From: a phage
DNA: 42,429 nucleotides
NCBI GenBank assembly: GCA_012697465.1
Contig: GCA_012697465.1_4985.1
Strand: one strand, 5' to 3'
Of this stretch, positions 1,988-33,251 are shown in pieces; position 1 is the stretch's first letter, and the number at the start of each line of letters is the position of its first letter. The notes beneath the pieces were generated by a model. It worked only from the letters and a program-made list of their open reading frames with translations, was not told the DNA's origin and made no database searches. A program made the position numbers and the translations under genes.

Positions 1988-3132
1988 CAGGGATTGCGCC
2001 AGCGTTTCGCGTGCTGGCCAACGGCGATGACATCACCGCCAAAATCAATGAACGCCTGATAAGCCTTAGTCTGTCTGACGGCGTAGGGCTGGAATCTGAC
2101 ACGCTGGAAATCAGTCTGGCGGATGATGAACCGGCTAACCCAATCCAGATGCCGGAAACAGGCGCAGAACTGGAACTGTTCCTGGGTTATGACAACTGGA
2201 CCCAACGCATGGGCCTGTTTATCTGTGACGAAGTGGAACTGGCTGGCTGGCCAGGCACCATGACCATCAGGGCGCGCGCTGCCACCTATGACAAGTCAAA
2301 GGGCGGCAAAACCGACCTGCAAACGCAAAAATCACGTAGCTGGACCAAAGGCACGAAGTTTGGCGACATGGTGAAGAAGATAGCCAGCGAACACGGCATG
2401 GAATCAGCCGTGTCAGATAGCATGGCCAAAATCACTCTTCCACACACCGACCAGGCCGATGAATCTGACCTGAACCTGTTACTGCGACTGGCCAAGAAAT
2501 ATGACGGCGTAGTGAAACCATCAGGCGGCAAAATCACGGTCACGAAGCGCGGCGAAGGTAAGACGGCCAGCGGCGAAGAACTGCCAACCATAACGCTGAC
2601 GGCGCAGGATTGCACCGCATTCCGGCTAACCAGCCAGAAGCGCGAAAACGCAGGCACGGTGGTGGCTTACTACCAGGTGACGAAGAAGGCAGCGCGCAAC
2701 GAAGTGAAGGTGGGAGAAGGTGAGCCGGTCAAACGGATTGGAAAATACTACCCAACGCAGGCAATGGCACTGGACGCAGCCAAAGCCGAATTGTCGAAGC
2801 GTCAGCGTAACCAGGTAACTGTTGCCGTGACGCTGCCGGGTGACCCGACCATTGCCGCTGAATGCAAACTGGTGCTGGCTGGGTTTCGTGACGGAATTGA
2901 TGGCGAATGGCTGATTACCCGCGCAGATCACCGGCTGGATGACAACGGTTATTCGTGCGACGTGGAAGCAACGAAGCCGAACAGCGAGGAAGAACCGCAT
3001 GTGCAAATCATCGAGCGCAGGAAGCCGCAAGAAAGCGACCCGCCTGATGATGATGGTCCAGGACACGTGATCGAAGAAAAGGACATTAACGAAGGCGATG
3101 ACGGACCTGGTCACGTCATCGAAGAAAAATAA
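1978..3132 (+). CDS. P2 gpD-like tail protein (late control D family) with C-terminal tandem repeat
   Basis: N-terminus AFRVLANGDDIT...LSLSDGVGLESDTLEISLADDE fits the gpD family; C-terminus carries two copies of DDGPGHVIEEK (about 3049-3129). Confidence 0.8.
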   Translation: MGLTGIAPAFRVLANGDDITAKINERLISLSLSDGVGLESDTLEISLADDEPANPIQMPETGAELELFLGYDNWTQRMGLFICDEVELAGWPGTMTIRARAATYDKSKGGKTDLQTQKSRSWTKGTKFGDMVKKIASEHGMESAVSDSMAKITLPHTDQADESDLNLLLRLAKKYDGVVKPSGGKITVTKRGEGKTASGEELPTITLTAQDCTAFRLTSQKRENAGTVVAYYQVTKKAARNEVKVGEGEPVKRIGKYYPTQAMALDAAKAELSKRQRNQVTVAVTLPGDPTIAAECKLVLAGFRDGIDGEWLITRADHRLDDNGYSCDVEATKPNSEEEPHVQIIERRKPQESDPPDDDGPGHVIEEKDINEGDDGPGHVIEEK

Positions 3133-3149
3133 CAACAAACATTGTTGCA

Positions 3150-3165
3150 ATCATTCTGCATCATC
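3150..3165 (+). repeat. 16-bp exact direct repeat ATCATTCTGCATCATC, left copy
   Basis: Identical 16-mer also at 5777-5792; the two copies bracket the accessory genes and the tRNA. Confidence 0.6.
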
Positions 3166-3226
3166 GTATATCATTACCTTAACCGGGCGGAATACCCGCC
3201 CGGACTACTAACGAGGTAATGCCCAC

Positions 3227-3973
3227 ATGAACACATCAAATAAAACCCTGCTGCAAATACTGGTTGAAGAACTACCGAAACGTGGAGGATGGCCTGATGG
3301 TGCGCTAAATGCCACACAAGATAAAGATGGCGAAGTATGCTTTTCTGACGGTGCAGTCCCTGAATTTGGCCTCGCTGCTTGGGAGGGTGGCAACTGGTGC
3401 GGAAATGAGTTTTACACAATTACGGCCATCGACTACGCCACTGCCATCATAACCCGCGACCAGTACGAAGCCGCGCTGGCAGCCAGTAAAGAACTGCGCC
3501 CGTATCAGGTTTCAACCGAACACTACACTTCTCACGCAAGCGCAGGCAAAACCGCCAGTGCCGACGACACTGACGGCTGGATTCAATGGGCTGGTGGTGA
3601 ATGCCCGGTGGAACGTGGCACGCTGGTTGATATCAAAGACCGTGACGGATTCGTACATTTAGGTGTTGAAGCATTAGACAATAACAATGCCGATGATGTT
3701 TTTTGGCAGCGTGGCGTTTGTGGTGTCAGCGATAACGAAATAATCGCCTACCGCCTGAACCAGACGCAGGACACCAACACCCGCGCGAACGATGACATCC
3801 TGGAAGCCGGCCTGAACGACTGCATTGGCCAGGCGCAAAGCAATGACCATGCGCGCGATGAAATTCTTTACGAACTGGCTAACTTTGCAGCCACTACAAA
3901 AACCAGTCTTGACATTGGTGTTGCCACAGAAATTGCAATTTGGCTTTCTGGCAAAGGTTATCGTAAACAATGA
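3227..3973 (+). CDS. Hypothetical protein (accessory/moron candidate)
   Basis: 248-aa ORF with ATG start in the att-proximal accessory locus; no recognisable motif. Confidence 0.5.
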   Translation: MNTSNKTLLQILVEELPKRGGWPDGALNATQDKDGEVCFSDGAVPEFGLAAWEGGNWCGNEFYTITAIDYATAIITRDQYEAALAASKELRPYQVSTEHYTSHASAGKTASADDTDGWIQWAGGECPVERGTLVDIKDRDGFVHLGVEALDNNNADDVFWQRGVCGVSDNEIIAYRLNQTQDTNTRANDDILEAGLNDCIGQAQSNDHARDEILYELANFAATTKTSLDIGVATEIAIWLSGKGYRKQ

Positions 3974-4053
3974 TTGTTAAAAAACGCGATCTGCCCATCA
4001 TTATTGTATGGGCTTCATTTCTAATCACTTCATTTGTATTGGGGTTTATTTAA

Positions 4054-4935
4054 ATGGCTACTATTGGACAACTCTATAAAGCAGGTGCCACCGAAGCAAA
4101 GCCGCGCAAGGTGTTTTGGGTGCCGCTGGCTGAACTGTATGTGGAAAATGGCTACAACATCCGTGACGTGGACCAGGCGCACGTTGAAGAATTCCGCGAT
4201 GCGTACCTGGCAGGTGAATATGTACCTCCGCTGACCGTGGAAGTGACGCAGCATGGCATCAAGGTGATTGACGGGCACCACCGCTTTGCCGGTGCCAAGA
4301 TGGCCGCAGAAACCGGCTTGGAACTGCGCCTGGAAGTGAACGACATCACCGGCACCAGTGAGGCTGACAAAATCGCGCTGATGGTCACCAGCAGCCAGGG
4401 CAAGCCGCTGGAACCGCTGGAACGCGCCAAAGCCTATGCGCGCCTGAAAGCGCAGGGCTGGACCAATGACGAGATAGCCAGGAAGGTAAAGCGCAGCCCG
4501 TCAGACGTGGCCAACATGCTTGCCCTGGCTGAATGCCCGGAACCCATCAAAGACATGGTGCGCGGCGGCCAGATGTCCTACGTGACCGCCACCGAACTGA
4601 CCCGCCAGCATGGCGCCGAAGCCGAAGCCGTGGCCGCACAGGCGCTGGAAGAAGCCAAAGCCGCTGGCAAGGATAAAGTAACAAAGAAATTCACCGAACC
4701 GAAGGCACCGAAAGCGCAGAAGTCCAAGCCGGAAGCCATCCAGCCACCGTTCGGCAAAGACAAGCTGACGCGCATGGCTGACCTGGCTGTGCATATCGAA
4801 CTGGTTCACAGCGATGAACGCCTGGAAGATGCCGAGGATGACGAATCCATGACCCTGCGCGCACCTGCTGGCGTGGTGCGTGAATTCATGGCGCTGGTGG
4901 CTGACTACGTTGGTGGGGTGAATGATGACCAATAA
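4054..4935 (+). CDS. ParB/Srx-like nuclease-domain protein with HTH region
   Basis: N-terminal region with IKVIDGHHRFAGA (ParB N-terminal domain GxxR-type box) followed by a helix-turn-helix-like segment WTNDEIARKVKRSPSDVANMLAL; acidic C-terminus. Confidence 0.6.
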   Translation: MATIGQLYKAGATEAKPRKVFWVPLAELYVENGYNIRDVDQAHVEEFRDAYLAGEYVPPLTVEVTQHGIKVIDGHHRFAGAKMAAETGLELRLEVNDITGTSEADKIALMVTSSQGKPLEPLERAKAYARLKAQGWTNDEIARKVKRSPSDVANMLALAECPEPIKDMVRGGQMSYVTATELTRQHGAEAEAVAAQALEEAKAAGKDKVTKKFTEPKAPKAQKSKPEAIQPPFGKDKLTRMADLAVHIELVHSDERLEDAEDDESMTLRAPAGVVREFMALVADYVGGVNDDQ

Positions 4936-5164
4936 CGAATTCAACACACTACGTGACAGGATGCGCACCGAAAAGGTGATGGCAAAATCCAAGCTGCGCG
5001 AACTTTTTTACAAGGATGTGAAGGCTTTAACCCGCTCGCCTGAATTTGCCAGCGGTGGTTATGCGTCAATAAAAGCTGGCGGTGATTACCCGTACAAGAA
5101 CCAAAGCAAAACAGTAAAGCTGAAACTACGTTGCGGATACCTGAGCGCAAAGGTGATCGTATGA
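4922..5164 (+). CDS. Hypothetical small basic protein
   Basis: 80-aa ORF overlapping the end of the ParB-like gene; Lys-rich; no motif recognised. Confidence 0.35.
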   Translation: MMTNNEFNTLRDRMRTEKVMAKSKLRELFYKDVKALTRSPEFASGGYASIKAGGDYPYKNQSKTVKLKLRCGYLSAKVIV

Positions 5165-5454
5165 AAGGCGAACTGAAAGCCGGTGGCCTGGCGCTGGTTT
5201 ACGGGCTGAGTGAAGATGTTCAGCAATGGAATGGCCGGTCAGTCACACTGCTTGAAAGACGCGATGATATACCAGACGACTATTCGGCGACCTGGTGGCG
5301 TTGCGAATACAGCGCAGGCATGGTGATTCACGTGGCACCAAAAAACCTGCTGCCAATAGGCGGCGACGATCAGTTTCTGGCAAGCGCAACAGGCGAAGGG
5401 CTGAACAGACTGGCTGAACAATTTGGATTCAAACCCGCCGAACTGACGGCGTAA
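5161..5454 (+). CDS. Hypothetical protein
   Basis: ATG at 5161 overlaps the upstream stop (ATGA); last gene of the accessory operon; followed by a terminator. Confidence 0.4.
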   Translation: MKGELKAGGLALVYGLSEDVQQWNGRSVTLLERRDDIPDDYSATWWRCEYSAGMVIHVAPKNLLPIGGDDQFLASATGEGLNRLAEQFGFKPAELTA

Positions 5455-5465
5455 GTGTAACCAAC

Positions 5466-5492
5466 AGCCCTCCACCTGGAGGGCTTTTTGTT
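5466..5492 (+). terminator. Rho-independent terminator of the accessory operon
   Basis: AGCCCTCC-ACCT-GGAGGGCT hairpin followed by TTTTGTT; abuts the 3' end of the tRNA. Confidence 0.6.
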
Positions 5493-5495
5493 GGG

Positions 5496-5572
5496 TGGCG
5501 ACCCCTACAGGAATCGAACCTGTAACCTACAGCTTAGAAGGCTGTCGCTCTATCCGGTTGAGCTAAGGGGCC
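5496..5572 (-). tRNA. tRNA-Arg (anticodon UCU)
   Basis: 77-nt cloverleaf folded by hand on the minus strand: 7-bp acceptor stem, D arm, anticodon stem ACAGC/GCUGU with loop CUUCUAA, T arm ACAGG-UUCGAUU-CCUGU, encoded CCA end. Confidence 0.8.
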
Positions 5573-5616
5573 GTGTAATTATGTGGCGTGATTCGCGGTT
5601 AAGGTTTTGCACTACC

Positions 5617-5640
5617 GTACCCTAAACCATACCCTAAACC
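5617..5640 (+). repeat. Tandem direct repeats (G/A)TACCCTAAACC x2, candidate integrase arm-type sites
   Basis: Two adjacent 12-mers between tRNA and int; a third copy plus a partial copy at 5841-5860. Confidence 0.4.
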
Positions 5641-5776
5641 GTTTTGCCTATCGGCTAAGTATCTGTAATTCCTCGCTTATTAACTTTGTTGCAATCCGCT
5701 TAGAAGGCGGTTACAGTGGCTTAATCGCAAGTCATTACAAATCACGCGAACAGCCACTAAGCCACTGCGTTTAAAC

Positions 5777-5792
5777 ATCATTCTGCATCATC
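5777..5792 (+). repeat. 16-bp exact direct repeat ATCATTCTGCATCATC, right copy
   Basis: Identical to 3150-3165; 84 nt upstream of the int start codon. Confidence 0.6.
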
Positions 5793-5840
5793 CCCGGCTA
5801 AGTGTTTGCGTTCAGATCCTGTTTTGACTTGTGCCGAACC

Positions 5841-5860
5841 GTACCCTAAACCGTACCCCA
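5841..5860 (+). repeat. GTACCCTAAACC plus partial copy GTACCCCA just upstream of int
   Basis: Same 12-mer as at 5617-5640, 17 nt before the int ATG. Confidence 0.4.
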
Positions 5861-5876
5861 ATTCGAGGCATAAGCC

Positions 5877-7088
5877 ATGCTGACAGAACGCCAGATACAG
5901 GCGGCCATGCGCGCCGTGACCAGTGAAACAGTGTTGAACGATGGGGCCGCAGGACGTGGCAGCGGAAGCCTGCGCCTGCGCATTCGTGCCGGTGCAAAAG
6001 GGCCGAACGCTACCTGGCAGGCCGTCTGGTGGAACGCCGGAAAACAGACCAGTAAGGCGCTTGGCCGCTACCCGGATTTGAGCCTGGCCGACGCGCGCCG
6101 GAAGTATGAAACCGAAGTGCGCGACGTGCTGACGGCTGGCCGTGACCCAAACGCAGTGGTTGCAATGGCCGAAACCCCGACCATTGAAAAATTGTTCCAG
6201 TCTTACATCCAGTACCTGCGCGACAAAGAGACGGCGACCACCCACACATCAGAACACCTGCTGCTGACCGGCAAATACAACGCCGCTGATTTGCTTGGCC
6301 GCAACACCATTGCGTCAACCATCGAACCTGCCGACATCGCCAACGTGCTGGCCAAAGGCGTGAAGCGTGGCGCACGCCGAACCACCGACATGCAGCGCAC
6401 CGCCATGATGGCCGCATTTAATTGGGCGATGAAATCGACACACGATTACACGCAGGAAAACCGCATGGATTGGGGGCTGAAATATAACCCTGTTGCAGCC
6501 GTTCCGCGCGACCAGGCAGCCAACCGCACGCTGGATAGAAACCTGTCAGCGGAGGAAATGAAACACGTATGGGATAACGCGCCGGAACAAAGCGGCGACG
6601 TGATGCGCCTGGTGATGTGCACCGGCCAGCGCGTGATTGAAGTCATGCGCATAGCTGGTGCTGACGTGGACCTGAAAGCCAGGCTGTGGACGATGCCAGC
6701 CAGGAAAACAAAGGGCCGCAAGCAAACCCACATGGTGCCGCTGACCACGCAGGCGGTGGACATCCTGGCCACGCTGATTGACCTGTACGGTGACGGTTAC
6801 CTGTTCCCTGCCCGCGCTGGCGCTAAGGGTGACATTATCGGAATCCCAAGCGTCAGCCGTGGTGCCAGCCGCATGGCAGGCATTAAGCCGTTCACCCCGC
6901 GCGACCTGCGCCGCACCTGGAAGTCACGCGCCGGTGACGCTGGCATTGACAGGTTCACGCGTGACCTTATCCAGCAGCACGCGCAGACTGACACCGGCAG
7001 CAAACATTATGACCGCTTTGACTACCTGCCGCAGATGCGTGACGCGATGACCAAATGGGAAGCCTGGCTGGCTGACGCGCTGAAATAA
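5877..7088 (+). CDS. int: Tyrosine site-specific integrase (P4-type)
   Basis: 403 aa; N-terminal arm-binding-like region (GSGSLRLRIRAGAKG...WQAVWW...YPDLSLADAR), catalytic-domain motifs TGQRVIEV, RDLRRTW, and C-terminal H...HYDRFDY...WEAWL tail; next to a tRNA gene. Confidence 0.85.
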   Translation: MLTERQIQAAMRAVTSETVLNDGAAGRGSGSLRLRIRAGAKGPNATWQAVWWNAGKQTSKALGRYPDLSLADARRKYETEVRDVLTAGRDPNAVVAMAETPTIEKLFQSYIQYLRDKETATTHTSEHLLLTGKYNAADLLGRNTIASTIEPADIANVLAKGVKRGARRTTDMQRTAMMAAFNWAMKSTHDYTQENRMDWGLKYNPVAAVPRDQAANRTLDRNLSAEEMKHVWDNAPEQSGDVMRLVMCTGQRVIEVMRIAGADVDLKARLWTMPARKTKGRKQTHMVPLTTQAVDILATLIDLYGDGYLFPARAGAKGDIIGIPSVSRGASRMAGIKPFTPRDLRRTWKSRAGDAGIDRFTRDLIQQHAQTDTGSKHYDRFDYLPQMRDAMTKWEAWLADALK

Positions 7089-9429: not shown

Positions 9430-10419
9430 TTACTGTGCGCCGGTGCCCATCACCTGGCTGTTTAAATCTTCAACGTCCTGCGCATCGCCGTTTGCGTTGG
9501 CGCGCTGTTCGTCATATGCGCGGGCGGCTTGCAACAATGATTGTTTGAATTCATCGCCCAGCTTTTTGCGAATTGCTGGTGGCGTTTTGTCCCAGCATTC
9601 CTGCGTGTACTGCTCACCCTGTTCTGTAACGCCGCGCAGCTTGTTGCGGTAGGCTTCTACCTTCGGATCCAACTTGTTGCCGCCCTGAACCCACTGACGA
9701 AGCGCCAAACCGTCCTGTGCGCTGATGTAGCCGGTTTCACGGCCCAAGATGCCGCGCAATTCTTCCGGGCACTTCATGACCTGCTGCGCGCTGCCAGAAT
9801 CCCACATCATCAGGCTGGCTGTCATTTCAAACATCACGTTCTTTTCCGTCACCGGCATGATGCCTTGCGGTTCATATTCCGTCTTACCGTTAACCTTCAC
9901 CAGTTTCACTTTTTCACGTGCGCGGATGCAGCAGATGATGTGCATGTTTGATTGTAGCAACGCGTTCATGAAGCGCTTGTGTTCAGCCTTCGCGCGGTTC
10001 CACTGCGGCTTCATCGGGTTGGCCAGCGTGGCGATTTCTTCGCAGCCGCCTGTTCCTTCCCATTCGTGACTGATGGAGTCGATCACCAGCACTTCAACGC
10101 TTGCCTGTTCAAATTCGCGGATGGCGTCAATGTATCGCTGCGGGCTGAAAGGCGGTTCTAAATCTCCAATCCAGAACGCGTCCGGGCGTTCTTTCAGTCC
10201 AAGTGATTCCTGGATTTTTTCATAAGTGTCATCACTGGCGTACAGTGAGCCACGGCGGTTTTCGGTATCCAGAAAACCAACCTTTGTTCCGTCGCCGTTG
10301 GCCAGCCCATACGCCAGCATAAGTGCTGACAGGGTTTTGCCACTGCCGCTGATACCTGCCAGGCCGATGACCAGGCGCGCGCCTTCACGTTCCGCTTTAC
10401 GAATATTAATTACTGCCAT
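9430..10419 (-). CDS. RecA-like/AAA ATPase (Sak4-like recombination mediator, putative)
   Basis: Walker A GLAGISGSGKT and Walker B-like LVIDSIS; sits between exonuclease and SSB. Confidence 0.5.
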   Translation of the reverse strand: MAVINIRKAEREGARLVIGLAGISGSGKTLSALMLAYGLANGDGTKVGFLDTENRRGSLYASDDTYEKIQESLGLKERPDAFWIGDLEPPFSPQRYIDAIREFEQASVEVLVIDSISHEWEGTGGCEEIATLANPMKPQWNRAKAEHKRFMNALLQSNMHIICCIRAREKVKLVKVNGKTEYEPQGIMPVTEKNVMFEMTASLMMWDSGSAQQVMKCPEELRGILGRETGYISAQDGLALRQWVQGGNKLDPKVEAYRNKLRGVTEQGEQYTQECWDKTPPAIRKKLGDEFKQSLLQAARAYDEQRANANGDAQDVEDLNSQVMGTGAQ

Positions 10420-10446: not shown

Positions 10447-11589
10447 TTAAGCCGCACCAATCAGGTGGGCGTTTTTGTTCGCGTGCCACGCTGGCAGGCT
10501 GATGGTCTGGATTTTGTCACCGTAGCCAGGCCATTCACCTGTGCGCACGCATTCTGCATAAACGCGCAAATCATGCTGGTACTGAGCGCGGCCAATTTCT
10601 ACGCCTTCGCTATCCAGTACATAAACACCAACTGCGTAAGGCGGTTTTTTCTCAACGGCGATAAACGCAAAGTGTTTAGGATAACCACGCCAGAAATCAG
10701 GGCGGCAGCGGCACAGAACGCCGGTCACCGGATCAGTCCAGTAAACTGATAATTCTGCTTTGCCTTCCTGCGGAGGATTGCATTTTCCCTGTTCCAACGC
10801 CAGGCGCGTGCCGTCCATGTAGTATGCGTGTTGCACATCATAGCGCCAGTTGGCTATTGATTTTGCAAACCCTTCCGGGCTGGCATCTTCGGTGGTTTTC
10901 AAGTCACCAATGATGTCTTTGACGTGGTGCAGGATAGCGAACGCAGCCTGGTGATTCATTACCGCGTCACGCATGGCAAAAATTTGTTCAAACGCTTCCG
11001 GTGACAGCACTTTGCGTTCGCTGTTATTCCGCTGCCATTCTTCCAGTACGTCTGACCACAGTGTGACTTCCACGCCGTTTTCGCGCAGCAGGTTGGCCAG
11101 TTCATGACGGCTGCCGCTGGTAGACAGTTTGCCAGGACGGTCAACATTCAACTGGTTGATGATTTCTTTCAGGTCTGGCGCTTTCATCGCGTTAAGCTGT
11201 TCAGTAGTCCAGGTTTCAACAGGCTGGTTTTCCAGGATGCGTTCAACCAGTTCGCCTTTGTTGCCACCAGTCAGCAACTTAGGCAGGCGGCCTTCGTTCA
11301 GCTTGTTGACCATTTCCACCAGCACTTCGCGGTCATCAATAGCATCAGGCACATCAGAACGTCGCAGCGCCAGGCAATAGGTTTTTGCGAATTCTTCCGG
11401 TTCAAGAATTGCCATATGCACAGCCGTGCCGATTTCCTGTGCTGGTGTTGGCGTACGGTCATTAGCAGCAGTCACAACAGCGTTGTAGTGCATCGGGCTG
11501 CGGTGCACCAAATCCAGGCCAGACTTACTGATGCCTGGGCCGCCGTGGTATTCAGCGTTTGGAATGCCTTCGTAAACTCCTGGTTTCAT
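10447..11589 (-). CDS. PD-(D/E)XK-type exonuclease (exodeoxyribonuclease VIII-like domain)
   Basis: N-terminus MKPGVYEGIPNAEYHGGPGISKSGLDL is characteristic of prophage exonuclease VIII-like nuclease domain proteins; first gene of the leftward operon. Confidence 0.55.
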   Translation of the reverse strand: MKPGVYEGIPNAEYHGGPGISKSGLDLVHRSPMHYNAVVTAANDRTPTPAQEIGTAVHMAILEPEEFAKTYCLALRRSDVPDAIDDREVLVEMVNKLNEGRLPKLLTGGNKGELVERILENQPVETWTTEQLNAMKAPDLKEIINQLNVDRPGKLSTSGSRHELANLLRENGVEVTLWSDVLEEWQRNNSERKVLSPEAFEQIFAMRDAVMNHQAAFAILHHVKDIIGDLKTTEDASPEGFAKSIANWRYDVQHAYYMDGTRLALEQGKCNPPQEGKAELSVYWTDPVTGVLCRCRPDFWRGYPKHFAFIAVEKKPPYAVGVYVLDSEGVEIGRAQYQHDLRVYAECVRTGEWPGYGDKIQTISLPAWHANKNAHLIGAA

Positions 11590-11861
11590 TCGTTACCTCG
11601 CAATTATTATTCAACGTGACTTCCGATTAACTGCGGTGAATTATGGCTGACGTGTTGTTATACTGTCAACTTCTTTATAACTAACATTGTTTAGATCAGC
11701 GTCACGCGGCCTGATCAACAAACCTTAGCTGTACATCAGCCATGCGTTTTTTGCACATCGCGGTTTGATTGACGTCAATGACCATTACTACTGGTTGCAA
11801 CTTCGCCACGTAGTAACATACAATTGCGAATACTTTAAATGATGGCGAATGAACGATAATT
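11590..11861. promoter_or_regulatory. Divergent early control region (leftward recombination operon / rightward replication operon)
   Basis: 272-bp AT-rich non-coding gap between divergently oriented operons; candidate -35/-10 hexamers (TTGACG, TTGCAA...TACAAT); no repressor gene adjacent. Confidence 0.35.
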
Positions 11862-13280
11862 ATGGGCGTAATACTTAGGGACTATCAATCCGACATTATC
11901 AATAGGGCGCGCCTTTCTATGCGGCGCAACCGGCGCGTGTTATTGCAGGCACCAACAGGCGCGGGGAAAACTGCGCTGGCGTCATTCATGGCTGGGGAAG
12001 CATCGGCCAAAGGCCAGCAGGTGTGGTTTATTTGCCACCGCGCTGAACTGGTATTACAGACCAGTTTGACATTCAGGAAGTTCGGCATTGACCACGGATT
12101 TATTGCCGCAGGCTATCCCATGAACCTGCGCGCCGGGGTGCAGGTGTGCAGCATCGACACCCTGAAAAACCGCCTGCACACCCTGCCCGCCCCTAAGCTG
12201 GCCATCATGGACGAAGCGCACCACTGTGGCGCGGCGGGTTGGGCGCGCGTCAACGCCTGGCTGTTTGAGAATGGCGCGTATGTCATCGGCCTGTCAGCTA
12301 CGCCAAAGCGCCTGGACGGCACCGGCCTGGATGACCACTTTGACGACATCGTGTTAGGGCCATCTGTGCGATGGCTGATGGATAACGGCCACCTGTCTGA
12401 CTATCGCATGTTCTGCCCGGACATCCCTGACATGAAGGGTGTACGCAAGCAGATGGGCGATTTCTCAAAAGGCGAAACCGCCGAGAAGATGGATAAGCCG
12501 AAACTAACCGGCAACATCATCAGCCACTGGCTGAAATACGCCAAAGGCATGAAAACGGTTGGCTTCGCGGTCAACATAGCGCACAGCCGCCACTTAACGC
12601 AGGCATTCGTTGATTCAGGCATCCGTGCCGCACACCTGGACGGCGGCACCGATAAGGCGGAACGTAAGCGCATCATCCAGGACTACGCCAACGACAACCT
12701 GGATGTGATTTTCAACGTGTCGCTGTTCGGTGAAGGTTTCGACCTGTCAGCCATCGCACAAACTGACGTGACGATTGACTGCCTGATTGACGCGCAGCCT
12801 ACACAATCATTGTCGCTGGTGTTGCAGAAAGATGGGCGCGTGTTGCGACCGTCCAAAGGCAAAACCGCCATCATTCTGGACCACGCAGGAAATGCGCTGC
12901 GTCATGGCTTCCCTGACGACGAACGCGAATGGTCACTGGCTGGCGATGACAGCGGCAGCAAATCCAGCAGTGCTGGTGGCCCACCGCCGCCAGTCATTTG
13001 CAAAGGCTGTTTCAACGCCATCCGCCGACCACTGCCGCCGAAGTGCCCGCACTGCCAGAAGGAACTACAGGCCGAAGCCAGAGAAATTGAAGTGGCAGAA
13101 GGCGAACTGCGCGAAATGGACGAACGCGCCAAAGAAAGCCTGCGCGCGAAGATGAAACGCGAGGAAGATGCTTGCAAGGATATTGGCGCACTGACCGCCC
13201 TGGCGATGAAACGCGGGCTGCCGAACCCATCAGGGTGGGCCATAGCGAAGATGGGCGGAAGAAGATTTAAGCGTAAATAG
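11862..13280 (+). CDS. Superfamily-2 DEAH-box helicase with C-terminal zinc ribbon
   Basis: Motif I APTGAGKT, motif II DEAHH, motif III SAT, motif VI QKDGRVLRP; CKGC...CPHC ribbon near the C-terminus. Confidence 0.8.
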   Translation: MGVILRDYQSDIINRARLSMRRNRRVLLQAPTGAGKTALASFMAGEASAKGQQVWFICHRAELVLQTSLTFRKFGIDHGFIAAGYPMNLRAGVQVCSIDTLKNRLHTLPAPKLAIMDEAHHCGAAGWARVNAWLFENGAYVIGLSATPKRLDGTGLDDHFDDIVLGPSVRWLMDNGHLSDYRMFCPDIPDMKGVRKQMGDFSKGETAEKMDKPKLTGNIISHWLKYAKGMKTVGFAVNIAHSRHLTQAFVDSGIRAAHLDGGTDKAERKRIIQDYANDNLDVIFNVSLFGEGFDLSAIAQTDVTIDCLIDAQPTQSLSLVLQKDGRVLRPSKGKTAIILDHAGNALRHGFPDDEREWSLAGDDSGSKSSSAGGPPPPVICKGCFNAIRRPLPPKCPHCQKELQAEAREIEVAEGELREMDERAKESLRAKMKREEDACKDIGALTALAMKRGLPNPSGWAIAKMGGRRFKRK

Positions 13281-16795: not shown

Positions 16796-19099
16796 ATGAG
16801 TGCACAACAAAACTATAAGGATTTGACTGAACAGGAAATTGCAGAAGCACTTTCCTACATTGACGCCGGTTGCGACCGTGAAACATGGGTGCGCATGGCT
16901 ATGGCGGTCAAATCGGAATTAGGCGACGGCGGTTTCACCGTCTGGAATGACTGGTCACGCCAGTCTGACAAGTACAACAGCAAAGACGCGCGCGACACCT
17001 GGAAATCAGTGAAGCGTCACGGCGGCATTGGCATTGGCACCCTGATTGGTGAGGCGCAGTTATTTGGCTTTTCGCTGAACGATAACGAACGCACACCGAT
17101 TTCTGCCGAAGAGATTCAGGCGCGTAAAAAACGCCGCGAAGAAGAAGAGCGCAAAGAACAACAACTGCGCGCAGAACGTATGGCGCAGGCAGCAGAGCAG
17201 GCGCGCAACATATGGGAATCAGCTACCGAACTGGAAGGAGATGAACACCCATACCTGAAACGCAAACTTGTTAAATCATTCGGGCTGCGCATCGGTCGTT
17301 TTCGTAACCAGGATGGCGCGCTACTGGTGCCAATCAGAAACATTGACGGGCAGATCACCAGCCTGCAAGCCATATTCCAGAACGAAAACCCACAGCTAGG
17401 GCGTGACCGTGATTACCTTCCTGGTGGTCAGAAACGTGGGTGCTTCCACGTCATTGGCAACAAACCAACTGGTGCAAATCCGGTTATTGTCATCTGTGAA
17501 GGCTATTCCACCGGTGCATCCATTCACATGTCTACCGGTTACTGCGTGGTGGTCGCGTTCGATGCCGGTAACGTGCCGACCGTAGCCAAGTTGATGCGTC
17601 AGCAGTTCGGACGCGCAACAATTGTTGTGGCAGCCGATAACGACCAGTGGCACGAAGATGGCAAGCAAAATGATGGTGTTCACTACGCGCGCCAGGCATC
17701 AATCACCACTGGTGGCCTGCTGGCGGTTCCTAAATTTACGCGCCTTAGCGATAAGCCTACCGACTTCAATGACCTGCACGTACTGGAAGGTTTAAACGCT
17801 GTAAGCAACCAGATTAACGCGGTGATACCGGAACCAGTGAATGATAACTTTCTGCCACTTGATGCCAGCGTAAACCCGTTCATGTTCCCGCACATGAGCC
17901 ACCAGCAAAAACCGCTTAACACGTGGGAAAACCTGGAATGGCTGCTTACCCAGTACGGCATCAAATCGCGTTACAACGAAATCAGCAAAGATGTGGTAGT
18001 TACGATCCCCGGCAAGGATTACGGCAACGACGCATCAGCTAACAGCGCATTGACTGAAATTGTCAGCCTGTGTGCCCGCAACGGTATGCCGTCTGGTTCC
18101 TGTGCTGAGTATGTAAAACTGATTGCCATGAGCAATCGCTACAACCCGGCATCTGAATTTATCACCGCAAAACCGTGGGATGGTGTGAGCCGCATTTATG
18201 ACCTGTGCGATACACTGGAAACGGCGGAAGGTTTTGACCGCAGCCTGGTGTTGATGATGGTTCGCCGCTGGTTGATTTCCGCCGTTGCTGCCGCGATGCA
18301 GCCAACTGGGTTCTACTCAAAAGGCGTTCTGGTGCTACAGGGTGAACAGTCGCTGGGGAAAACAGCATGGTTTCGCTCGCTGGTGCCGCCTACACTGCGC
18401 GAACTGATTAAGGTAGGGGCAACAATCGACCCGGCAAACAAAGATAGCGTCAGCAGCGCAATAGGCCGCTGGATGGTGGAGCTTGGCGAACTGGATGCAA
18501 CTTTCCGTAAATCGGACATCGCACGCCTTAAATCATTCATCAGCCAGGACCGTGACGAAATCCGCAGACCTTATGACCGGCTTGAATCGACCTACCAGCG
18601 CAGAACCGTGTTTTTTGCGTCAGTGAACCCGAAACACTTCCTGGCGGATGACACTGGGAACGTTCGCTGGTGGACTATCCCGGTAACGCGCATCAACTAC
18701 GAACACGATATTGATATGCAGCAGGTTTGGGCTGAAGTGGCGCAGTTGTACCGAGAAGGCGAACGCTGGTGGATGAACGCAGAAGAAGAAGCCATGCTGG
18801 AACAAGTTAACAAGGAACACGAAGCTATTGACCCGGTAGAGGAAATGATACTGATGCGTTACGAGTGGGGTTGCGACAGACCAGCAGCCTATACCGACCG
18901 TACAGCAACGCAGGTGCTGCAAGAAATTGGCTACGACAAGCCGAACAAGGCACAGACTACACATTGTGCAGGGGTGCTGAGAAAACTCACTGGTAAGCCT
19001 GCCAGGAAGTCTGGAAGCAATCGCCTGTTCAGCATTCCGCCGAAGGTGCCAAACCCTGACCACCGGCGATTCAATGACGATGATGACCGGCCATTTTGA
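16796..19099 (+). CDS. DNA primase (PriCT-2 + Toprim + VirE-like P-loop domain), P4-alpha-like replication protein
   Basis: N-terminal PriCT-like segment (DRETWVRMAMAV...FTVWNDW), Toprim core (VIVICEGYSTG...AADND), C-terminal Walker A QGEQSLGKT. Confidence 0.75.
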   Translation: MSAQQNYKDLTEQEIAEALSYIDAGCDRETWVRMAMAVKSELGDGGFTVWNDWSRQSDKYNSKDARDTWKSVKRHGGIGIGTLIGEAQLFGFSLNDNERTPISAEEIQARKKRREEEERKEQQLRAERMAQAAEQARNIWESATELEGDEHPYLKRKLVKSFGLRIGRFRNQDGALLVPIRNIDGQITSLQAIFQNENPQLGRDRDYLPGGQKRGCFHVIGNKPTGANPVIVICEGYSTGASIHMSTGYCVVVAFDAGNVPTVAKLMRQQFGRATIVVAADNDQWHEDGKQNDGVHYARQASITTGGLLAVPKFTRLSDKPTDFNDLHVLEGLNAVSNQINAVIPEPVNDNFLPLDASVNPFMFPHMSHQQKPLNTWENLEWLLTQYGIKSRYNEISKDVVVTIPGKDYGNDASANSALTEIVSLCARNGMPSGSCAEYVKLIAMSNRYNPASEFITAKPWDGVSRIYDLCDTLETAEGFDRSLVLMMVRRWLISAVAAAMQPTGFYSKGVLVLQGEQSLGKTAWFRSLVPPTLRELIKVGATIDPANKDSVSSAIGRWMVELGELDATFRKSDIARLKSFISQDRDEIRRPYDRLESTYQRRTVFFASVNPKHFLADDTGNVRWWTIPVTRINYEHDIDMQQVWAEVAQLYREGERWWMNAEEEAMLEQVNKEHEAIDPVEEMILMRYEWGCDRPAAYTDRTATQVLQEIGYDKPNKAQTTHCAGVLRKLTGKPARKSGSNRLFSIPPKVPNPDHRRFNDDDDRPF

Positions 19100-20523: not shown

Positions 20524-20800
20524 ATTTGGGACTATCTATGGTCCCAAATGGGACTATCTTTTTTTGAGCTGGTCCCACGTTAAGTTACTGATATTAATAA
20601 CGAAAACACCATTTGGGACTATAAGGGACTATCTTTTTATAAAACATTATTTATAAATAAAGGGGGAGTAATAGTATATATAGGGAAATTTGGTCCCACT
20701 TGTCCCAAATCAGCCAGAAAATGGCGTTTTCTTTAAGTTAATCAATAGCATAACAGTGGGACTATCTTTTGCTGAGATAGTCCCAAGTTAGTCCCTTGTT
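20524..20800. repeat. Iteron-like array: about 11 direct and inverted copies of TGGGAC(T/C)ATCT around an AT-rich core
   Basis: Copies at about 20528, 20538(inv), 20550, 20571(inv), 20615, 20625, 20692(inv), 20702(inv), 20758, 20775(inv), 20791(inv); includes two perfect inverted-repeat pairs; no ORF. Confidence 0.65.
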
Positions 20801-20865: not shown

Positions 20866-21300
20866 ATGGAATTACCGCGCACTGTGCAGGAAATAGCTGA
20901 CGTTATTGGCCGTGAACGTGCGCTTTTTCTTATCGGACAACTGCCAAAACTGTGGGTGCCATCGCAGCAATACCACAAAGTCATCCTGTATGTACCAAAG
21001 CGGATTCGACCCAATGACCCACTGGTGAAAATCCTGGGGTGGCATGATTCCAGCAAGATGGTGCAGCACTTCGGAGGTGAAATGCTTCACCCGGCTAATT
21101 GTGAATACATTTACCGCCATTTCATTCACCGCAGCATTAAGCGGATGCACAGCGAAGGAATGGACGCAAAAGCTATTGCGGAACTTCTTGACGTGTCAGA
21201 GCGCACCGTTAAGCGCCATTGCACTGACAAACCCCACAAAGACACATCACCTGCAAATGACAACCATCAGCACCGACTACTAATGACTACGGGGCAATAA
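20866..21300 (+). CDS. Mor/C-family transcriptional activator (putative late-gene activator)
   Basis: 144 aa; central ...ILYVPK... segment and C-terminal HTH AIAELLDVSERTVKRH; directly upstream of the lysis and packaging genes. Confidence 0.4.
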   Translation: MELPRTVQEIADVIGRERALFLIGQLPKLWVPSQQYHKVILYVPKRIRPNDPLVKILGWHDSSKMVQHFGGEMLHPANCEYIYRHFIHRSIKRMHSEGMDAKAIAELLDVSERTVKRHCTDKPHKDTSPANDNHQHRLLMTTGQ

Positions 21301-24286: not shown

Positions 24287-26283
24287 CCAGCGTGCTTGAG
24301 GCTGACCAGCGAGCGGCCCAGAACCTGATACCGCCGGAAGATTTAAAGCCGAGCGAATGGGCTGAAAAAAACGTACAAATCCCGGTTGGTAACGCCAAGC
24401 CTGGACCTATCCGTTTCGCTAACGCGCCTTACCAGCGAGGTATGCTTGACGCCATCAAGGAACCTGGCGTGCGACGCATTAGCTACATGACTGGCGCACA
24501 GCTTGGAAAAACAACAATCCAGCAGTGCATTACTGGATATTTCATCGAACACGAACCGAGAAGCCAGATTTTTGTTCAGCCGACGCAGGGCGACGTTCAG
24601 ACATTTCAGGAAACCAAACTGCGCCCAATGCTTGACGCTAACCCTAAAATCAGCCGCCTGATGGCCAAGCAGCGCGGGCGTGAAGGGGTGAATAACAGCA
24701 GGATTATTTCCTATATCGGCGGTTGGCTGATGTTTAGCTGGGCAGGTAGTCCAAAAACTCTGCGCGGGCGTTCCGCACCAGTCACGCAAGCTGACGAAAT
24801 CGACGGTTTTGAAGCAACGGCAGAGGGTGACCCCGGCGAACTTCTGGCACAGCGTGCTGCGTCATTTGGTGATGATGCTCTGCGTACTGAATCAAGTACG
24901 CCGACCATCAAGGGTGAAAGCCGGATTGAAACTGCGTTTGAACTTGGTGACCAGCGTCGTTACCACGTGCGTTGCCAAGATTGTGGCACACTGCAATATT
25001 TCCACTGGCAAAACGTCACGTGGGTTGGCCGCAAGTCAACTGGTATTGATGATGCAGAAAACGACCTTAACTGCGAGCATCAGCCGGAAACAGCGGCATA
25101 CGTTTGCGAGGGCTGCGGATCATGTTGGGATGATGGCCAACGTGTAGCAGCTATCCGCGAAGCCGAAAGCAACGGAGGTGGCTGGATAGCTTCCAAACCG
25201 TTCAAAGGTCACATCTCTTTCCATGCGCCGGAAATGCTTTCGACTTTTCGCCGGTTACGCGACATTGTTCAATCATATCTGGATAAACTTGCGCTTGGTG
25301 ACCTGCAATCTTTCGTCAACGTCAGCCTTGGTGAAACTTACGACGAACAAGGCGACAAAGTTGACCCGGATTCACTGATGGCCCGCCGAGAGGAATACGC
25401 AGCGCCGGTTCCTGCTGGTGGTCTGTATATCACCGCAGGCATAGACATGCAGGTTGACCGCCTGGAATGTGAGGTGGTGGCCTGGGGCGTGGGTGAAGAA
25501 TCCTGGTCATTGGGTTACCACGTATTGTGGGGCGACCCGCTGACGCCTGACCCATGGGATGCGCTGGATGACCTGCTGGCGGAAACCTACCAGCATGAAA
25601 CCGGGGCCATTATGCCTATCATGGCCGCCTGCCTCGACACAGGGGGCACCAGTGGTTACACGCAGGCCGCCTATGACTACGCCAGGGGGCGCACAGGCCG
25701 CCGTCTGTTCGCCATCAAAGGTGTTGGCGGATGGGGCCGCCCTATCGTGGAGAAGCCGCAGCGCAAGCAATCCGGGAAGGATGCCCGCAAGGTGGATTTA
25801 TTCCTGGTTGGCACCGATGAAGCCAAGCTGATAACCGCACGGCGTTTAAACAAGACGGCACCGGGGCCGGGTTATTGCCATTTCCCTGCTGACCGCGATG
25901 AAGAATGGTTCAAGCAGATCACCGCTGAAAAACTTACCATGCGTTACGTGAAGGGCCAGCCAATACGCGAATGGAAGAAGCCGGACAAGGCGCGAAACGA
26001 AGCACTTGACTGCCGCAACTATGCGCTGGCCGCGCTGAAAATCATGCAGCCGTCATTCCGCCGCCTGGCTGAAAAGTTTGGCGTAGCGAACGACAACGCG
26101 CCACCGGAACGCCGCAAGCGGCTACCGAACGTCAAACCCATCGTGAAACCGGCAGAACCACCGAAACCGGCCAATGACAAACCCCAAGAAGAAGAAAAAC
26201 AGCAAGTCACAGAGACTAAGACCATTAAACGTTCCGCCATGGCCGCAAAACGCCGTGGCGGTGGATGGGTTAGCCGCTGGTGA
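24256..26283 (+). CDS. Terminase large subunit (lambda GpA family)
   Basis: 675 aa; N-terminal ATPase region and overall layout of GpA-type terminases; follows a Nu1-like gene. Confidence 0.8.
   Translation: MDNKQQFSNLTSVLEADQRAAQNLIPPEDLKPSEWAEKNVQIPVGNAKPGPIRFANAPYQRGMLDAIKEPGVRRISYMTGAQLGKTTIQQCITGYFIEHEPRSQIFVQPTQGDVQTFQETKLRPMLDANPKISRLMAKQRGREGVNNSRIISYIGGWLMFSWAGSPKTLRGRSAPVTQADEIDGFEATAEGDPGELLAQRAASFGDDALRTESSTPTIKGESRIETAFELGDQRRYHVRCQDCGTLQYFHWQNVTWVGRKSTGIDDAENDLNCEHQPETAAYVCEGCGSCWDDGQRVAAIREAESNGGGWIASKPFKGHISFHAPEMLSTFRRLRDIVQSYLDKLALGDLQSFVNVSLGETYDEQGDKVDPDSLMARREEYAAPVPAGGLYITAGIDMQVDRLECEVVAWGVGEESWSLGYHVLWGDPLTPDPWDALDDLLAETYQHETGAIMPIMAACLDTGGTSGYTQAAYDYARGRTGRRLFAIKGVGGWGRPIVEKPQRKQSGKDARKVDLFLVGTDEAKLITARRLNKTAPGPGYCHFPADRDEEWFKQITAEKLTMRYVKGQPIREWKKPDKARNEALDCRNYALAALKIMQPSFRRLAEKFGVANDNAPPERRKRLPNVKPIVKPAEPPKPANDKPQEEEKQQVTETKTIKRSAMAAKRRGGGWVSRW
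26176..26192 (+). repeat. 17-bp element GACAAACCCCAAGAAGA, copy 1
   Basis: Exact 17-mer, inside the 3' end of the terminase gene (codons DKPQEE). Confidence 0.7.
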
Positions 26284-26829: not shown

Positions 26830-28385
26830 TGAAACTGTGGCCATTTACCAGAAACAAGCCTGCCGAACAGGCACAACAGCCGCGCACGCGGCGTTTACCG
26901 CTTAACCGCCTGGCGTCCCGTATGTTTACCGGTGCCAGTGTTGACCGCTTCGGCACCGCATGGGGTACGCAGCCGCTGACGGCTGATGAAGTCATTACCA
27001 AAAATCAACGCATCCTGGTGGCCCGTTCCCGCGAACAGGCCTCCAACAATGATTATGCCAAAAAGTTCCTGCGCCTGTGCCGCACAAACATTGTTGGGCC
27101 AAAAGGCGTTCTGTTGCAGGCAAAAAGCCAGGATAACACCGGAAAACTGGACACCCTGGCGAATGAAGCCATTGAACTGGCGTTTAACGCATGGGGCAAA
27201 AAGACCAACTGCGACGTGACCGGGAAACTGTCATGGCGTGCCATCCAGGCCGCCTGCGTCAACAGCGTGGCAAAAGACGGTGAATTCTTCGTGCGCCTGG
27301 TGTTCGGGGCTGACGCAGGGCCGTGGGGCTTCTCGCTGCAACTGCTGGACCCTCAACGCTGCCCGGTGGACATGGTTGAAGATCGGCTGCCAAACGGAAA
27401 TTTCATCCGCCAGGGCATCGAATTTAACCGCTACGGGCGGCCTATCGCGTATTATTTCAGCACAGTTGATGAATCGGATGAAAACTACCGTTGGGCTGGG
27501 CGTGACTTTGTGCGCGTGCCTGCGGAAGAAATCCTGCACGGCTTTTTTGATGACATGGTGGGCCAGAAACGCGGCCTGCCCTGGATGGCAACCAGCCTGT
27601 TTCGTATGCGCCACCTGGGCGGCATGGAAGAAGCCGCACTGGTCAACGCGCGAGCAGGTGCAAACAAAATGGGGTTTATCGAATGGGATGAAAACGGCGC
27701 TGGACCTGAATTCGACGATGAAGACGAACTGATCATTGACAGTGAACCTGGTGAATTCCAGGTGCTGCCACAGGGCGCACGCATCAAAGACTGGTCACCG
27801 CAATACCCCAACGGCGAATTTGCCGTGTTCACCAAACAGATGCTGCGCGGAATGGCTTCTGGCATGGGCGTGGCTTACAACAACCTGGCCAACGACCTGG
27901 AAGGTGTCAATTTCAGTTCCATCCGACAGGGCACGCTTGACGAGCGTGAAAGCTGGAAGGAATTGCAGGAATGGCTGATCGAAAACCTGCACCAGCCTGT
28001 CTTTGACGCCTGGTTGCCGCGCGCCCTGCTGTCTGGACGCATCACGGTGAAGGGCCGCAGCCTGAAACCGGAACGCATCGACCGCTACAGCAACATTGAA
28101 TGGCAGCCACGCCGTTGGGCCTGGATTGACCCATCATCTGACGTGGCAGCGGCTGAAAAATCCAAAAACAACATGCTGCAATCGCCTGGCCGCATCATCC
28201 GTGAAGGTGGCAGCGACCCTGACACCGTTTGGAAGGAAACCGCCAGCGACGTTGCGCGCATGATTGAGGCGTACACGCAGCACGGTATCAGCCGCGAAAT
28301 GGCGGAAAAACTGGTCATGCAAAGCATGGGCATGGACAAACAACTGTTAATGGGGCAGCAAAATGCAGAAAAACCCGCTGAATAG
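26829..28385 (+). CDS. Portal protein (lambda gpB family)
   Basis: 518 aa, position after terminase and W-like gene, acidic and aromatic-rich portal-like sequence. Confidence 0.7.
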   Translation: MKLWPFTRNKPAEQAQQPRTRRLPLNRLASRMFTGASVDRFGTAWGTQPLTADEVITKNQRILVARSREQASNNDYAKKFLRLCRTNIVGPKGVLLQAKSQDNTGKLDTLANEAIELAFNAWGKKTNCDVTGKLSWRAIQAACVNSVAKDGEFFVRLVFGADAGPWGFSLQLLDPQRCPVDMVEDRLPNGNFIRQGIEFNRYGRPIAYYFSTVDESDENYRWAGRDFVRVPAEEILHGFFDDMVGQKRGLPWMATSLFRMRHLGGMEEAALVNARAGANKMGFIEWDENGAGPEFDDEDELIIDSEPGEFQVLPQGARIKDWSPQYPNGEFAVFTKQMLRGMASGMGVAYNNLANDLEGVNFSSIRQGTLDERESWKELQEWLIENLHQPVFDAWLPRALLSGRITVKGRSLKPERIDRYSNIEWQPRRWAWIDPSSDVAAAEKSKNNMLQSPGRIIREGGSDPDTVWKETASDVARMIEAYTQHGISREMAEKLVMQSMGMDKQLLMGQQNAEKPAE

Positions 28386-31127: not shown

Positions 31128-31459
31128 TGCCAGCGCCGTCCTGGGAAAACCTGGACGACTTTTTTGACCTTGACACCAACGGCGGGTTTGCATTTCCCGC
31201 CGTTATTCATTCGCAAAAAGGTTGGACCAGAACAATTAACGCCATCTTTGATGACCCGTACTTCAACGCGCAAATTGGCGAGTATGAAGCGGACACCAGC
31301 AGCCCACGCATCACGGCAAAGGAATCTGACCTGGCCGGTATCCTGCGTGGTGACACAATCATTGTGGCCGGTGAAACATTCGACGTGCTGGCATCACCTG
31401 AACAGGATGGCACAGGCACTGCCGTTGTGAGGATGACGCGCCAAGATGCTGCATTTTGA
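31127..31459 (+). CDS. Head-tail joining protein (lambda gpFII-like)
   Basis: C-terminal ...LRGDTIIVAGETFDVLASPEQDGTGTAVVRM parallels lambda FII as I remember it. Confidence 0.5.
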   Translation: MPAPSWENLDDFFDLDTNGGFAFPAVIHSQKGWTRTINAIFDDPYFNAQIGEYEADTSSPRITAKESDLAGILRGDTIIVAGETFDVLASPEQDGTGTAVVRMTRQDAAF

Positions 31460-33219: not shown

Positions 33220-33222
33220 CCT

Positions 33223-33239: not shown

Positions 33240-33251
33240 TAAACCACCACC

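Follow-up and report, generated by a model that had tools for sequence, protein, structure and literature searches.

An orphan ParB-like protein and a conserved set of dispersed palindromes in a Jilinvirus-type phage genome

Introduction

The described proteins most similar to the product of a predicted parB gene analyzed in this study are KorB of the IncP plasmid RK2, the chromosomal protein Noc, the ParB-type proteins of phages N15 (SopB) and P1, and orphan ParB-fold proteins of mobile elements. The gene is the second of four open reading frames (ORF1–ORF4) in a locus at positions 3133–5495 of a stretch of phage DNA of 42,429 nucleotides (nt) (GenBank assembly GCA_012697465.1, contig GCA_012697465.1_4985.1), which was analyzed over its full length and is referred to below as the window. 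The region 3000–5700 matched (at approximately 95% identity, over only 48–64% of its length) the Escherichia phages HeidiAbel_Bas97 (hereafter Bas97), vB_EcoM_ECOO78 (ECOO78), ECO1230-10, ep3, Alux-21 and Salmonella phage PT1, which are Jilinvirus (Iiscvirinae) myoviruses of 41–43 kb. The genes of the locus are already annotated in these relatives as a "ParB-like partition protein" plus hypothetical proteins; what is added here is (i) a division of the locus into an apparent core and its passengers, (ii) a conserved leader, and (iii) a genome-wide set of palindromes tied to parB.

The resemblance to KorB (PDB 8qa8/1r71) comprises a ParB N-terminal domain followed by a helix-turn-helix (HTH), with a weak sequence match, many 13-bp odd-centered palindromes distributed over a replicon of 40–60 kb, some of them at promoters (binding by the phage protein being putative), likely autoregulation, and a small co-encoded protein (KorA in RK2, ORF4 in the window). 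However, KorB is accompanied by IncC (a ParA) and is an intact cytidine triphosphatase (CTPase), whereas the window lacks ParA and its ParB has degenerate Box II and Box III motifs. Moreover, KorA is an HTH protein and ORF4 a predicted SH3-like barrel, and the replicon in this case is a lytic-type phage.

Noc is likewise an orphan ParB with an HTH and many dispersed palindromes that acts without ParA, but it is chromosomal and needs both cytidine triphosphate (CTP) and a membrane-targeting N-terminus. SopB of N15 is a ParB that is encoded by the phage and has several separate inverted repeats (IR1–4) on the phage genome as its sites (PMC7205306), and ParB of P1 autoregulates (PMC11790492), as is proposed below for the phage protein. 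Both of them, in contrast to the protein described here, partition a plasmid prophage together with SopA or ParA; the window encodes neither ParA nor a repressor that would hold such a state.

Orphan proteins of the ParB-CTPase fold that are carried by mobile elements and lack a ParA-binding motif have been surveyed (PMC12704722), but no function or binding sites were assigned to the HTH-type phage orphans, and neither dispersed palindromes nor a partner such as ORF4 are described there. HerB/YfjB of F-like plasmids (PMC13370423) is a mobile-element orphan ParB-like protein with an HTH, many sites and ParA-independent regulation; it differs in its size (632 amino acids, aa), CTP-bound pocket and novel dimerization domain, and in binding host DNA rather than its own replicon. 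ParB-type activators of thymine dioxygenases (PMC13229309) are phage-encoded and act without ParA and apparently without a need for CTP, but they have no DNA-binding domain and are encoded beside a 5mYOX dioxygenase. The activator role was rejected for ORF2, since no dioxygenase is annotated and the ParB HTH is present.

Results

The ParB-like protein

ORF2 (positions 4054–4935, plus strand) encodes a protein of 293 aa, whose N-terminal domain is of the ParB/Srx type and has DGHHR instead of GERR. An HTH follows, with RSPSDVANMLAL as its recognition helix, then a linker rich in Lys and Pro, and the C-terminal domain is acidic, containing the stretch EDAEDDE. The HTH matches HTH_ParB (PF17762; residues 118–200) with 49 bits against a cut-off of 22.6, and almost the whole protein matches phrog_1033, "ParB-like partition protein" (E = 2.6e-83; residues 2–285 aligned to positions 16–295 of the 334-position profile). 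An earlier note, made from the sequence alone, had listed an N-terminal ParB domain, a GHHR motif, an HTH and an acidic tail; the last three were recovered as such, whereas the N-terminal domain gave no match to the Pfam model PF02195 at E ≤ 0.1 and was seen only in alignments with solved Spo0J/ParB proteins and in a sub-threshold match to TIGR00180 (47.8 bits; cut-off 58.45). The Noc model TIGR04285 was matched with 44.5 bits (cut-off 315). The closest solved relatives are Spo0J/ParB proteins (E = 1e-10 to 1e-8), followed by Noc (7e-6 to 4e-5) and KorB (1e-4 to 8e-4).

In the alignment with Thermus thermophilus Spo0J and Bacillus subtilis ParB, Box II GERR is replaced by GHHR and Box III ENLQR by TSSQG. 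Throughout the family alignment DG[HQ]HR is kept and Box III reads SSQG or ANDG, never containing Glu-Asn. Because the catalytic residues of Box III and two residues of Box II are missing, ORF2 is, judging from its sequence, unlikely to be a canonical CTP-hydrolyzing sliding clamp.

No ParA was identified in a six-frame scan of the window, in which P-loops were found only in the helicase and primase ORFs, apart from one weak match in a 103-aa stretch. None is annotated in the relatives either (including the 60 genes of Bas97), and the ParA-interaction motif [LFI]G[KR]G[LFI] was not found in the ORF2 translation. The description of the protein as a ParB without a ParA, given in the earlier note, is thus borne out, and ORF2 is in keeping with the orphan ParB-fold proteins already described from mobile elements (PMC12704722).

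Homologues of this ParB occur in 301 phage records, most with 43–50% identity, many of them siphoviruses of Klebsiella, Salmonella and Escherichia, virulent ones included; no relative of the ParB was found when the GTDB species genomes were scanned. The gene is found in various neighborhoods: between cII and an O-like replication gene in the lambdoid Erwinia phage 59, amid small, mostly hypothetical genes in Klebsiella phage KP591P1, and directly after RecT in an integrated lambdoid prophage located next to guaAB/xseA (L100). In the syntenic Foxunavirus FoX2, a ParB-like gene follows the DEAD helicase gene in the early operon, and only tiny ORFs and a tRNA follow gpD. Within 16.6 kb of L100, the sequence TTACCANNNTGGTAA is present three times. 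The unrelated siphovirus KP591P1 carries a tRNA-Arg(tct) gene besides its ParB homologue.

A genome-wide set of palindromes

Repeat finding in the window revealed the palindrome ACAAT(C/G)ATTGT in seven exact and seven one-mismatch copies, compared with 1.8 expected. In an unbiased palindrome scan (arms of 4–6 nt, centers of 0–4 nt), ACAATNATTGT and ACAA-N3-TTGT ranked first in the window, with 7 copies vs. 0.025 expected and 11 vs. 0.47, respectively. The same scan placed AACAA-N3-TTGTT or ACAA-N3-TTGT first in Bas97 and phage Arya, and ACAA-N3-TTGT near the top in Serratia phage MQ-4. Simulations with Markov models of order 2–4 yielded means of 0.45–0.68 copies and a maximum of 4, vs. the 11 observed. 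The candidate ParB site is AACAATSATTGTT.

Two of the 11 copies flank ORF1. Copy 1 (CAACAAACATTGTTG; 3133–3147), a candidate operator, is placed directly after the stop codon of gpD, overlaps a -35-like hexamer by 3 nt, and is invariant in the window, Bas97, ECOO78, Arya and the metagenomic contig L097. Copy 2 (AACAATGATTGTT; 3966–3978) spans the stop codon of ORF1, 76 nt upstream of the ATG of parB, and has equivalents upstream of parB in Bas97, Arya, MQ-4 and the contigs L096–L098. In MQ-4 this copy lies between a hairpin and the ribosome-binding site of parB, though ORF1 is absent, and therefore the site belongs with parB and not with ORF1. In L096 and L098 the ORF1 stop codon is TAA instead of TGA, a change that alters only the free center base of the palindrome.

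The remaining nine copies are dispersed over the genome. The sequence ACAATCATTGT occurs inside gpU (1706–1716; orthologous in Bas97, Arya and MQ-4), the DEAD-box helicase gene (12803–12813; kept in MQ-4), a 110-aa head-tail gene (31355–31365; Arya differs at the free center base only) and a 195-aa tail gene (34965–34975), as well as in the intergenic spacer that follows the tube gene (41013–41023). The other copies are ACAATGATTGT inside a 329-aa AAA_24-type gene of the minus strand (9534–9544), ACAATTGTTGT (of the form ACAA-N3-TTGT) inside the primase gene (17618–17628), ACAAACATTGT inside the portal gene (27084–27094) and ACAAAGATTGT at the start of a 93-aa gene (38610–38620). The gaps between the 11 copies range from 0.8 to 9.5 kb (most are 2.4–5.6 kb); two copies are in intergenic spacers, one lies across the ORF1 stop codon and one starts 7 nt inside a gene.

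Orthologous copies recur from genome to genome; MQ-4, where turnover has affected most positions, retains eight copies. Between the window and Arya, 77 of 80 half-site bases (96%) are identical vs. 778 of 964 flanking bases (81%; Fisher p = 8e-5), the changes falling on the free center base. From these comparisons the palindromes appear to be under purifying selection.

Association of the palindrome with ParB

The recognition helix RSPSDVAN[MF]LAL is present in all eight motif-rich genomes or contigs, which contain 0.26–0.33 sites per kb, vs. 0–0.14 in 79 IMG/VR loci with another or no recognizable helix. Another or no recognizable helix, together with absence of the motif, characterizes 79 of 80 IMG/VR relatives, the exception (L013) being a Jilinvirus. 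Each of the eight Jilinvirus-type genomes has a site linked to the 5' region of parB. The best reading of these sequence data is that ParB binds the palindrome, to which we assign about an even chance.

Several observations weigh against this reading and what is built upon it. The association of motif and helix is confounded by phylogeny, as the motif-rich genomes all belong to one lineage, and the single out-of-lineage test was negative: in L099, a fragment of a myovirus with a Mu-like baseplate whose ParB is 59% identical and has the similar helix CSISSVANMLAL, no site was found in 11.7 kb. No comparable dispersed palindrome was found in the lambdoid and siphovirus ParB relatives (among them Erwinia phage 59 and KP591P1). 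The motif could instead be owned by the late activator, the 77-aa repressor or the MerR-like Xis, all of which are encoded in the window. Most sites are intragenic, so their conservation could partly reflect protein constraint. Finally, the promoter of the parB unit is a consensus match, and the partnership of ORF4 with ParB is deduced from the adjacency of their genes. We infer the link between ParB and the palindrome rather than assert it, because the association is confounded by descent and the test outside the lineage was negative.

Architecture of the locus and its leader

The locus begins immediately after gpD (PF05954), which ends at 3132, and consists of four ORFs on one strand (3227–3973, 4054–4935, 4922–5164 and 5161–5454). 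A sigma-70-like promoter (TTGCAA-18 nt-TATCAT; 3145–3174, plus strand), which is a candidate promoter of the ORF1-parB unit, was the only promoter-like site on either strand between 2800 and 6000. The element TTGCA(A/T)-17/18-TATCAT is conserved in six phages, and Arya and MQ-4 keep the -35/-10 pair despite a differing spacer sequence. Between it and the ribosome-binding site of ORF1 there is a G+C-rich hairpin (CCGGGCGG-AATA-CCCGCCCGG; 3183–3203, plus strand), which MQ-4 retains with different stem sequences and with a T run following it. This hairpin may form a stem-loop in the leader or mark where the tail operon ends. The promoter pair, the G+C hairpin and the Shine-Dalgarno sequence are shared by phages of Escherichia and Serratia.

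At the downstream end, an intrinsic-terminator-like hairpin (AGCCCTCCACCTGGAGGGCT) is followed by the T run TTTTGTTGGG (5466–5495, plus strand). The four same-strand genes with their own terminator, as described in the earlier note, were therefore found, and in addition a promoter-like element. Located behind the tail genes, the locus forms a transcription unit of its own.

An exact 16-nt repeat, ATCATTCTGCATCATC, is present both in the spacer of the promoter-like element (3150–3165) and at 5777–5792, approximately 85 nt upstream of the integrase start; 4 matches with up to 3 mismatches were found vs. 0.5 expected. It might be a shared operator co-regulating the parB unit and int. The C-terminus of gpD, encoded at 3050–3132, ends in a tandem duplication (DDGPGHVIEEK ... 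DDGPGHVIEEK), and the gpD coding sequence is annotated as shorter in Bas97.

The parB-ORF4 core and the passenger genes

In every relative examined (Bas97, ECOO78, Arya, MQ-4 and L096–L098), as in the window, parB and a gene of the ORF4 family are adjacent, usually with overlapping stop and start codons. ORF4 (5161–5454, plus strand) follows parB directly or, in the window and ECOO78 only, is separated from it by ORF3 (4922–5164, plus strand), a sporadic insert of 80 aa. In the window, parB and ORF3 overlap by 14 nt, and the stop codon of ORF3 overlaps the start of ORF4 as ATGA, with the ATG at 5161. The coupling of two small genes, and the length of the first, agree with the earlier note; ORF4, however, encodes 97 aa and not 98. 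ORF3 matched no family and, among 50,697 phage records, was found only in ECOO78.

The ORF4 model (predicted local distance difference test, pLDDT, 75; predicted template modeling score, pTM, 0.63) suggests a five-strand SH3/KOW-like beta-barrel with a helical tail. In the alignment of the family, which includes MQ4_28 of MQ-4, invariant termini (MKGELKAGGLALVYGL ... NLLPIDGDD ... KPAELTA) enclose a hypervariable middle. Foldseek searches against PDB and BFVD with this model returned only generic SH3/KOW/PWWP barrels and uncharacterized phage proteins. The label "ATPase" carried by the ECOO78 homologue is considered an annotation artefact, since that protein is a 96-aa barrel. On the strength of the invariable adjacency, ORF4 may be a cofactor of ParB.

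ORF1 (3227–3973, plus strand) encodes a hypervariable, modular accessory protein of 248 aa. It had been described in the earlier note as having no recognizable motif, and indeed it matched nothing in Pfam, NCBIfam or PADLOC, and in PHROG only families of "unknown function"; sequence and profile searches against PDB were empty and Foldseek with the model found nothing below E = 2. The AlphaFold2 model, based on 65 sequences (pLDDT 63, pTM 0.32), suggests three parts joined by disordered linkers: an N-terminal domain (residues 8–90), a small beta domain (W118/W121/GG/C126/P127) and a C-terminal helical bundle. ORF1 is 37–55% identical among phages whose ParB proteins are 94–97% identical, and it is missing from MQ-4, in which gpD is directly followed by parB. 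The protein collection contained 866 homologues. In the two other phage contexts examined they are located in early accessory regions beside the gene of a single-stranded DNA-binding protein, with NinX and Ead/Ea22 or methyltransferases nearby. In a Pfam scan of 65 homologues the sole match was DUF3310, which replaces the C-terminus in 8 of them. The contigs of the related Logan assemblies L096 and L098 end inside or beside the ORF1 homologue. A role of ORF1 as a tail or receptor protein was rejected, because the promoter-like element and hairpin separate it from gpD and its homologues are placed among early genes.

The sequence comparisons therefore point to ParB and ORF4 as the conserved core of the locus, and to ORF1 (a mosaic gene) and ORF3 as exchangeable passengers. 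The term accessory operon used in the earlier note holds for ORF1 and ORF3 and not for the ParB-ORF4 pair; the comparison of neighborhoods, in which the four genes might have traveled together, left that pair as the only constant unit.

Genomic context and lifestyle of the phage

The region 3000–5700 had no match among 5,426 complete Escherichia coli genomes. An NCBI "hypothetical protein [Escherichia coli]" with a sequence identical to that of ORF1 is encoded on a stand-alone contig of 42,459 nt from run SRR11124264 (an E. coli isolate). Because of the Jilinvirus matches, the absence of copies in E. coli genomes and the stand-alone contig, the window is regarded as a complete Jilinvirus-type phage genome with no prophage edge.

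The window carries an intact integrase gene (5877–7088), whose product is 97.5% identical to that of Bas97. A CI-like repressor gene, which is present in Bas97, Arya and MQ-4, was not found in the window, where the exonuclease VIII-like and DEAD helicase genes are separated just by a 273-bp spacer (11589–11862), as in ECOO78. ECOO78 has neither integrase nor CI, yet retains ORF1, parB, ORF3 and ORF4 plus 10 palindrome sites; therefore, the unit is not specific to lysogeny. Reportedly, temperate behavior has never been shown for Jilinvirus, Bas97 forms clear plaques, int and cI are intact in some members only, and the lifestyle of the genus was termed "enigmatic" (PMC11990801). The phage is probably obligately lytic.

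Downstream of the locus and convergent with it there is a tRNA-Arg(UCU) gene (5496–5572, minus strand), which was the only hit of an Rfam search. This gene is 80–84% identical to tRNA-Arg genes of E. coli, is also present in the integrase-less Arya, and is phage-borne. The assumption of the earlier note that the locus lies at the att junction of a temperate phage is weak in view of the phage-borne tRNA, the lack of CI and the absence of copies from the complete E. coli genomes; a junction with host DNA was rejected, the window being a whole phage genome.

Further repeats were noted in the window. Between tRNA-Arg and int, two direct repeats containing CCGTACCCTAAACC(G/A)TACCC (5605–5637 and 5829–5861) look like integrase arm-type sites of a candidate attP region. 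Inverted and direct repeats based on TGGGACTATC...GGTCCCA (20537–20623 and 20549–20582/20757–20790) precede the late-activator gene (20866–21300) and may represent operators or elements of a late promoter. A 22-nt direct repeat, TGACAAACCCCAAGAAGAAGAA, is scattered through the structural genes (26175–26196, 28914–28935, 33222–33243 and 38958–38979; 86–100% identity), with two more copies at 77%.

Discussion

The account we favor, tentatively and at slightly less than an even chance, is that a ParA-less, probably CTPase-defective ParB of the KorB/Noc type represses its own operon and marks the phage genome. ParB dimers would bind, by means of the HTH, the 13-bp odd-centered palindrome (A)ACAAT-N-ATTGT(T). 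Autorepression, as known for P1 ParB and KorB, is proposed because two palindromes bracket ORF1, one abutting the -35 element of the unit and the other approximately 76 nt upstream of parB. The nine further copies, roughly 2.4–9.5 kb apart (with most gaps of 3–6 kb), would nucleate ParB complexes on the phage DNA, resulting in marking, compaction or silencing in the manner of KorB and Noc, and not in ParA-driven partition. KorB mutants with a defective CTP pocket still repress an operator-proximal promoter (PMC11790492). A more far-reaching version, in which, in a genus of small and mostly lytically growing phages, the CTPase-degenerate ParB and a dedicated SH3-like partner load at about ten palindromes and form a virus-encoded, chromatin-like organizer or global silencer, is rather doubtful. 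Such a system in the style of KorB and Noc would be new for a virulent phage, and its mechanism might extend to the hundreds of siphoviruses with homologous orphan ParB proteins.

Ownership of the palindromes by another phage or host DNA-binding protein would leave ParB to function in replication, in recombination or as a nuclease or nucleoside triphosphatase of the ParB/Srx type. The positions of parB homologues after the DEAD helicase gene in the early operon of FoX2, between cII and the O-like gene in Erwinia phage 59 and after RecT in the integrated prophage would suit such a role. That the palindromes have another owner would agree with the similar helix of L099, which is not accompanied by sites, and with the fact that repressors of the 434 type also read ACAA half-sites. 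Nevertheless, a site accompanies the 5' region of parB in each of the eight Jilinvirus-type genomes, whether or not ORF1 is there, no sites occur in the divergent control region of cI and the helicase gene, and the 13-bp odd-centered geometry matches the operator type of KorB, whose sequence in RK2 is TTTAGCSGCTAAA. We regard this explanation as unlikely. Recruitment of ParB to the host chromosome to reprogram host transcription early in infection would parallel HerB, an HTH-containing orphan ParB that binds the chromosome at many sites and rewires gene expression in the host (PMC13370423), and the sigma-70-type promoter of the unit could be used by the host RNA polymerase. HerB, however, has 632 aa, an intact CTP pocket and extra domains, as opposed to the 293 aa and degenerate Box II and Box III of ORF2, and it is on the phage genome that the enrichment and selection of sites were found, which makes a host target highly improbable.

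Two further explanations concern the locus as a whole. In the earlier note the four genes were taken for a single accessory moron operon serving in defence, anti-defence or lysogenic conversion, an interpretation with which several features agree: the presence of a separate promoter-like element and terminator where the tail module ends, the hypervariable middle of ORF4, the sporadic ORF3, the occurrence of ORF1 homologues elsewhere in early accessory regions beside methyltransferases, NinX and Ead, and above all the hypervariability of ORF1 itself, which is mosaic between near-identical phages in a pattern typical of arms-race genes and is the one feature that still fits the idea of host interaction. 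As a whole it is quite unlikely, since PADLOC-DB v2 gave no match for ORF1, ORF3 or ORF4 and no meaningful one for ORF2 (best E = 0.014, covering 31 HTH residues), ParB and ORF4 belong to the core and the four genes are not found together as a set, hundreds of virulent phages share the ParB family, and the retention of the unit in ECOO78 without integrase or repressor, like the absence of CI from the window, does not suit a lysogeny moron. We advise against listing the locus among defence-island candidates. It is very unlikely, too, that ParB and its sites serve to keep the phage outside the chromosome, as an episome in a carrier state or a plasmid-prophage, tethered to the nucleoid as by single-protein systems such as StbA or relying on a borrowed host ATPase. 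The inverted repeats of N15 are dispersed on its genome. The centromere recognized by N15 SopB consists of four separate inverted repeats (PMC7205306). The lifestyle of these phages is described as enigmatic, no integrated copy was present in the complete E. coli genomes, the GTDB scan was without a ParB relative, and the window is a stand-alone 42.4-kb contig in the assembly of an E. coli isolate. Such a contig can, however, derive from a phage carried along in the culture; ParA and a repressor holding the prophage state are both missing, Bas97 forms clear plaques and no lysogens (PMC11990801), and the ParB family is common in strictly virulent siphoviruses.

Orphan ParB-fold proteins are abundant on phages and plasmids, but for hardly any of them is a DNA target or a role known (PMC12704722, PMC13370423). 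The locus described here, with a ParB of 293 aa, a defined candidate site, 11 mapped copies on a 42-kb genome and a constant small partner, is a concrete and cheap test case, for which a culturable and publicly available close relative exists in Bas97 of the BASEL collection. Should the link to ParB fail, the palindrome network would still be a conserved, unexplained regulatory feature of the genus. If it holds, ParB-type DNA organization would reach beyond plasmid and chromosome partition to the biology of lytically growing phages.

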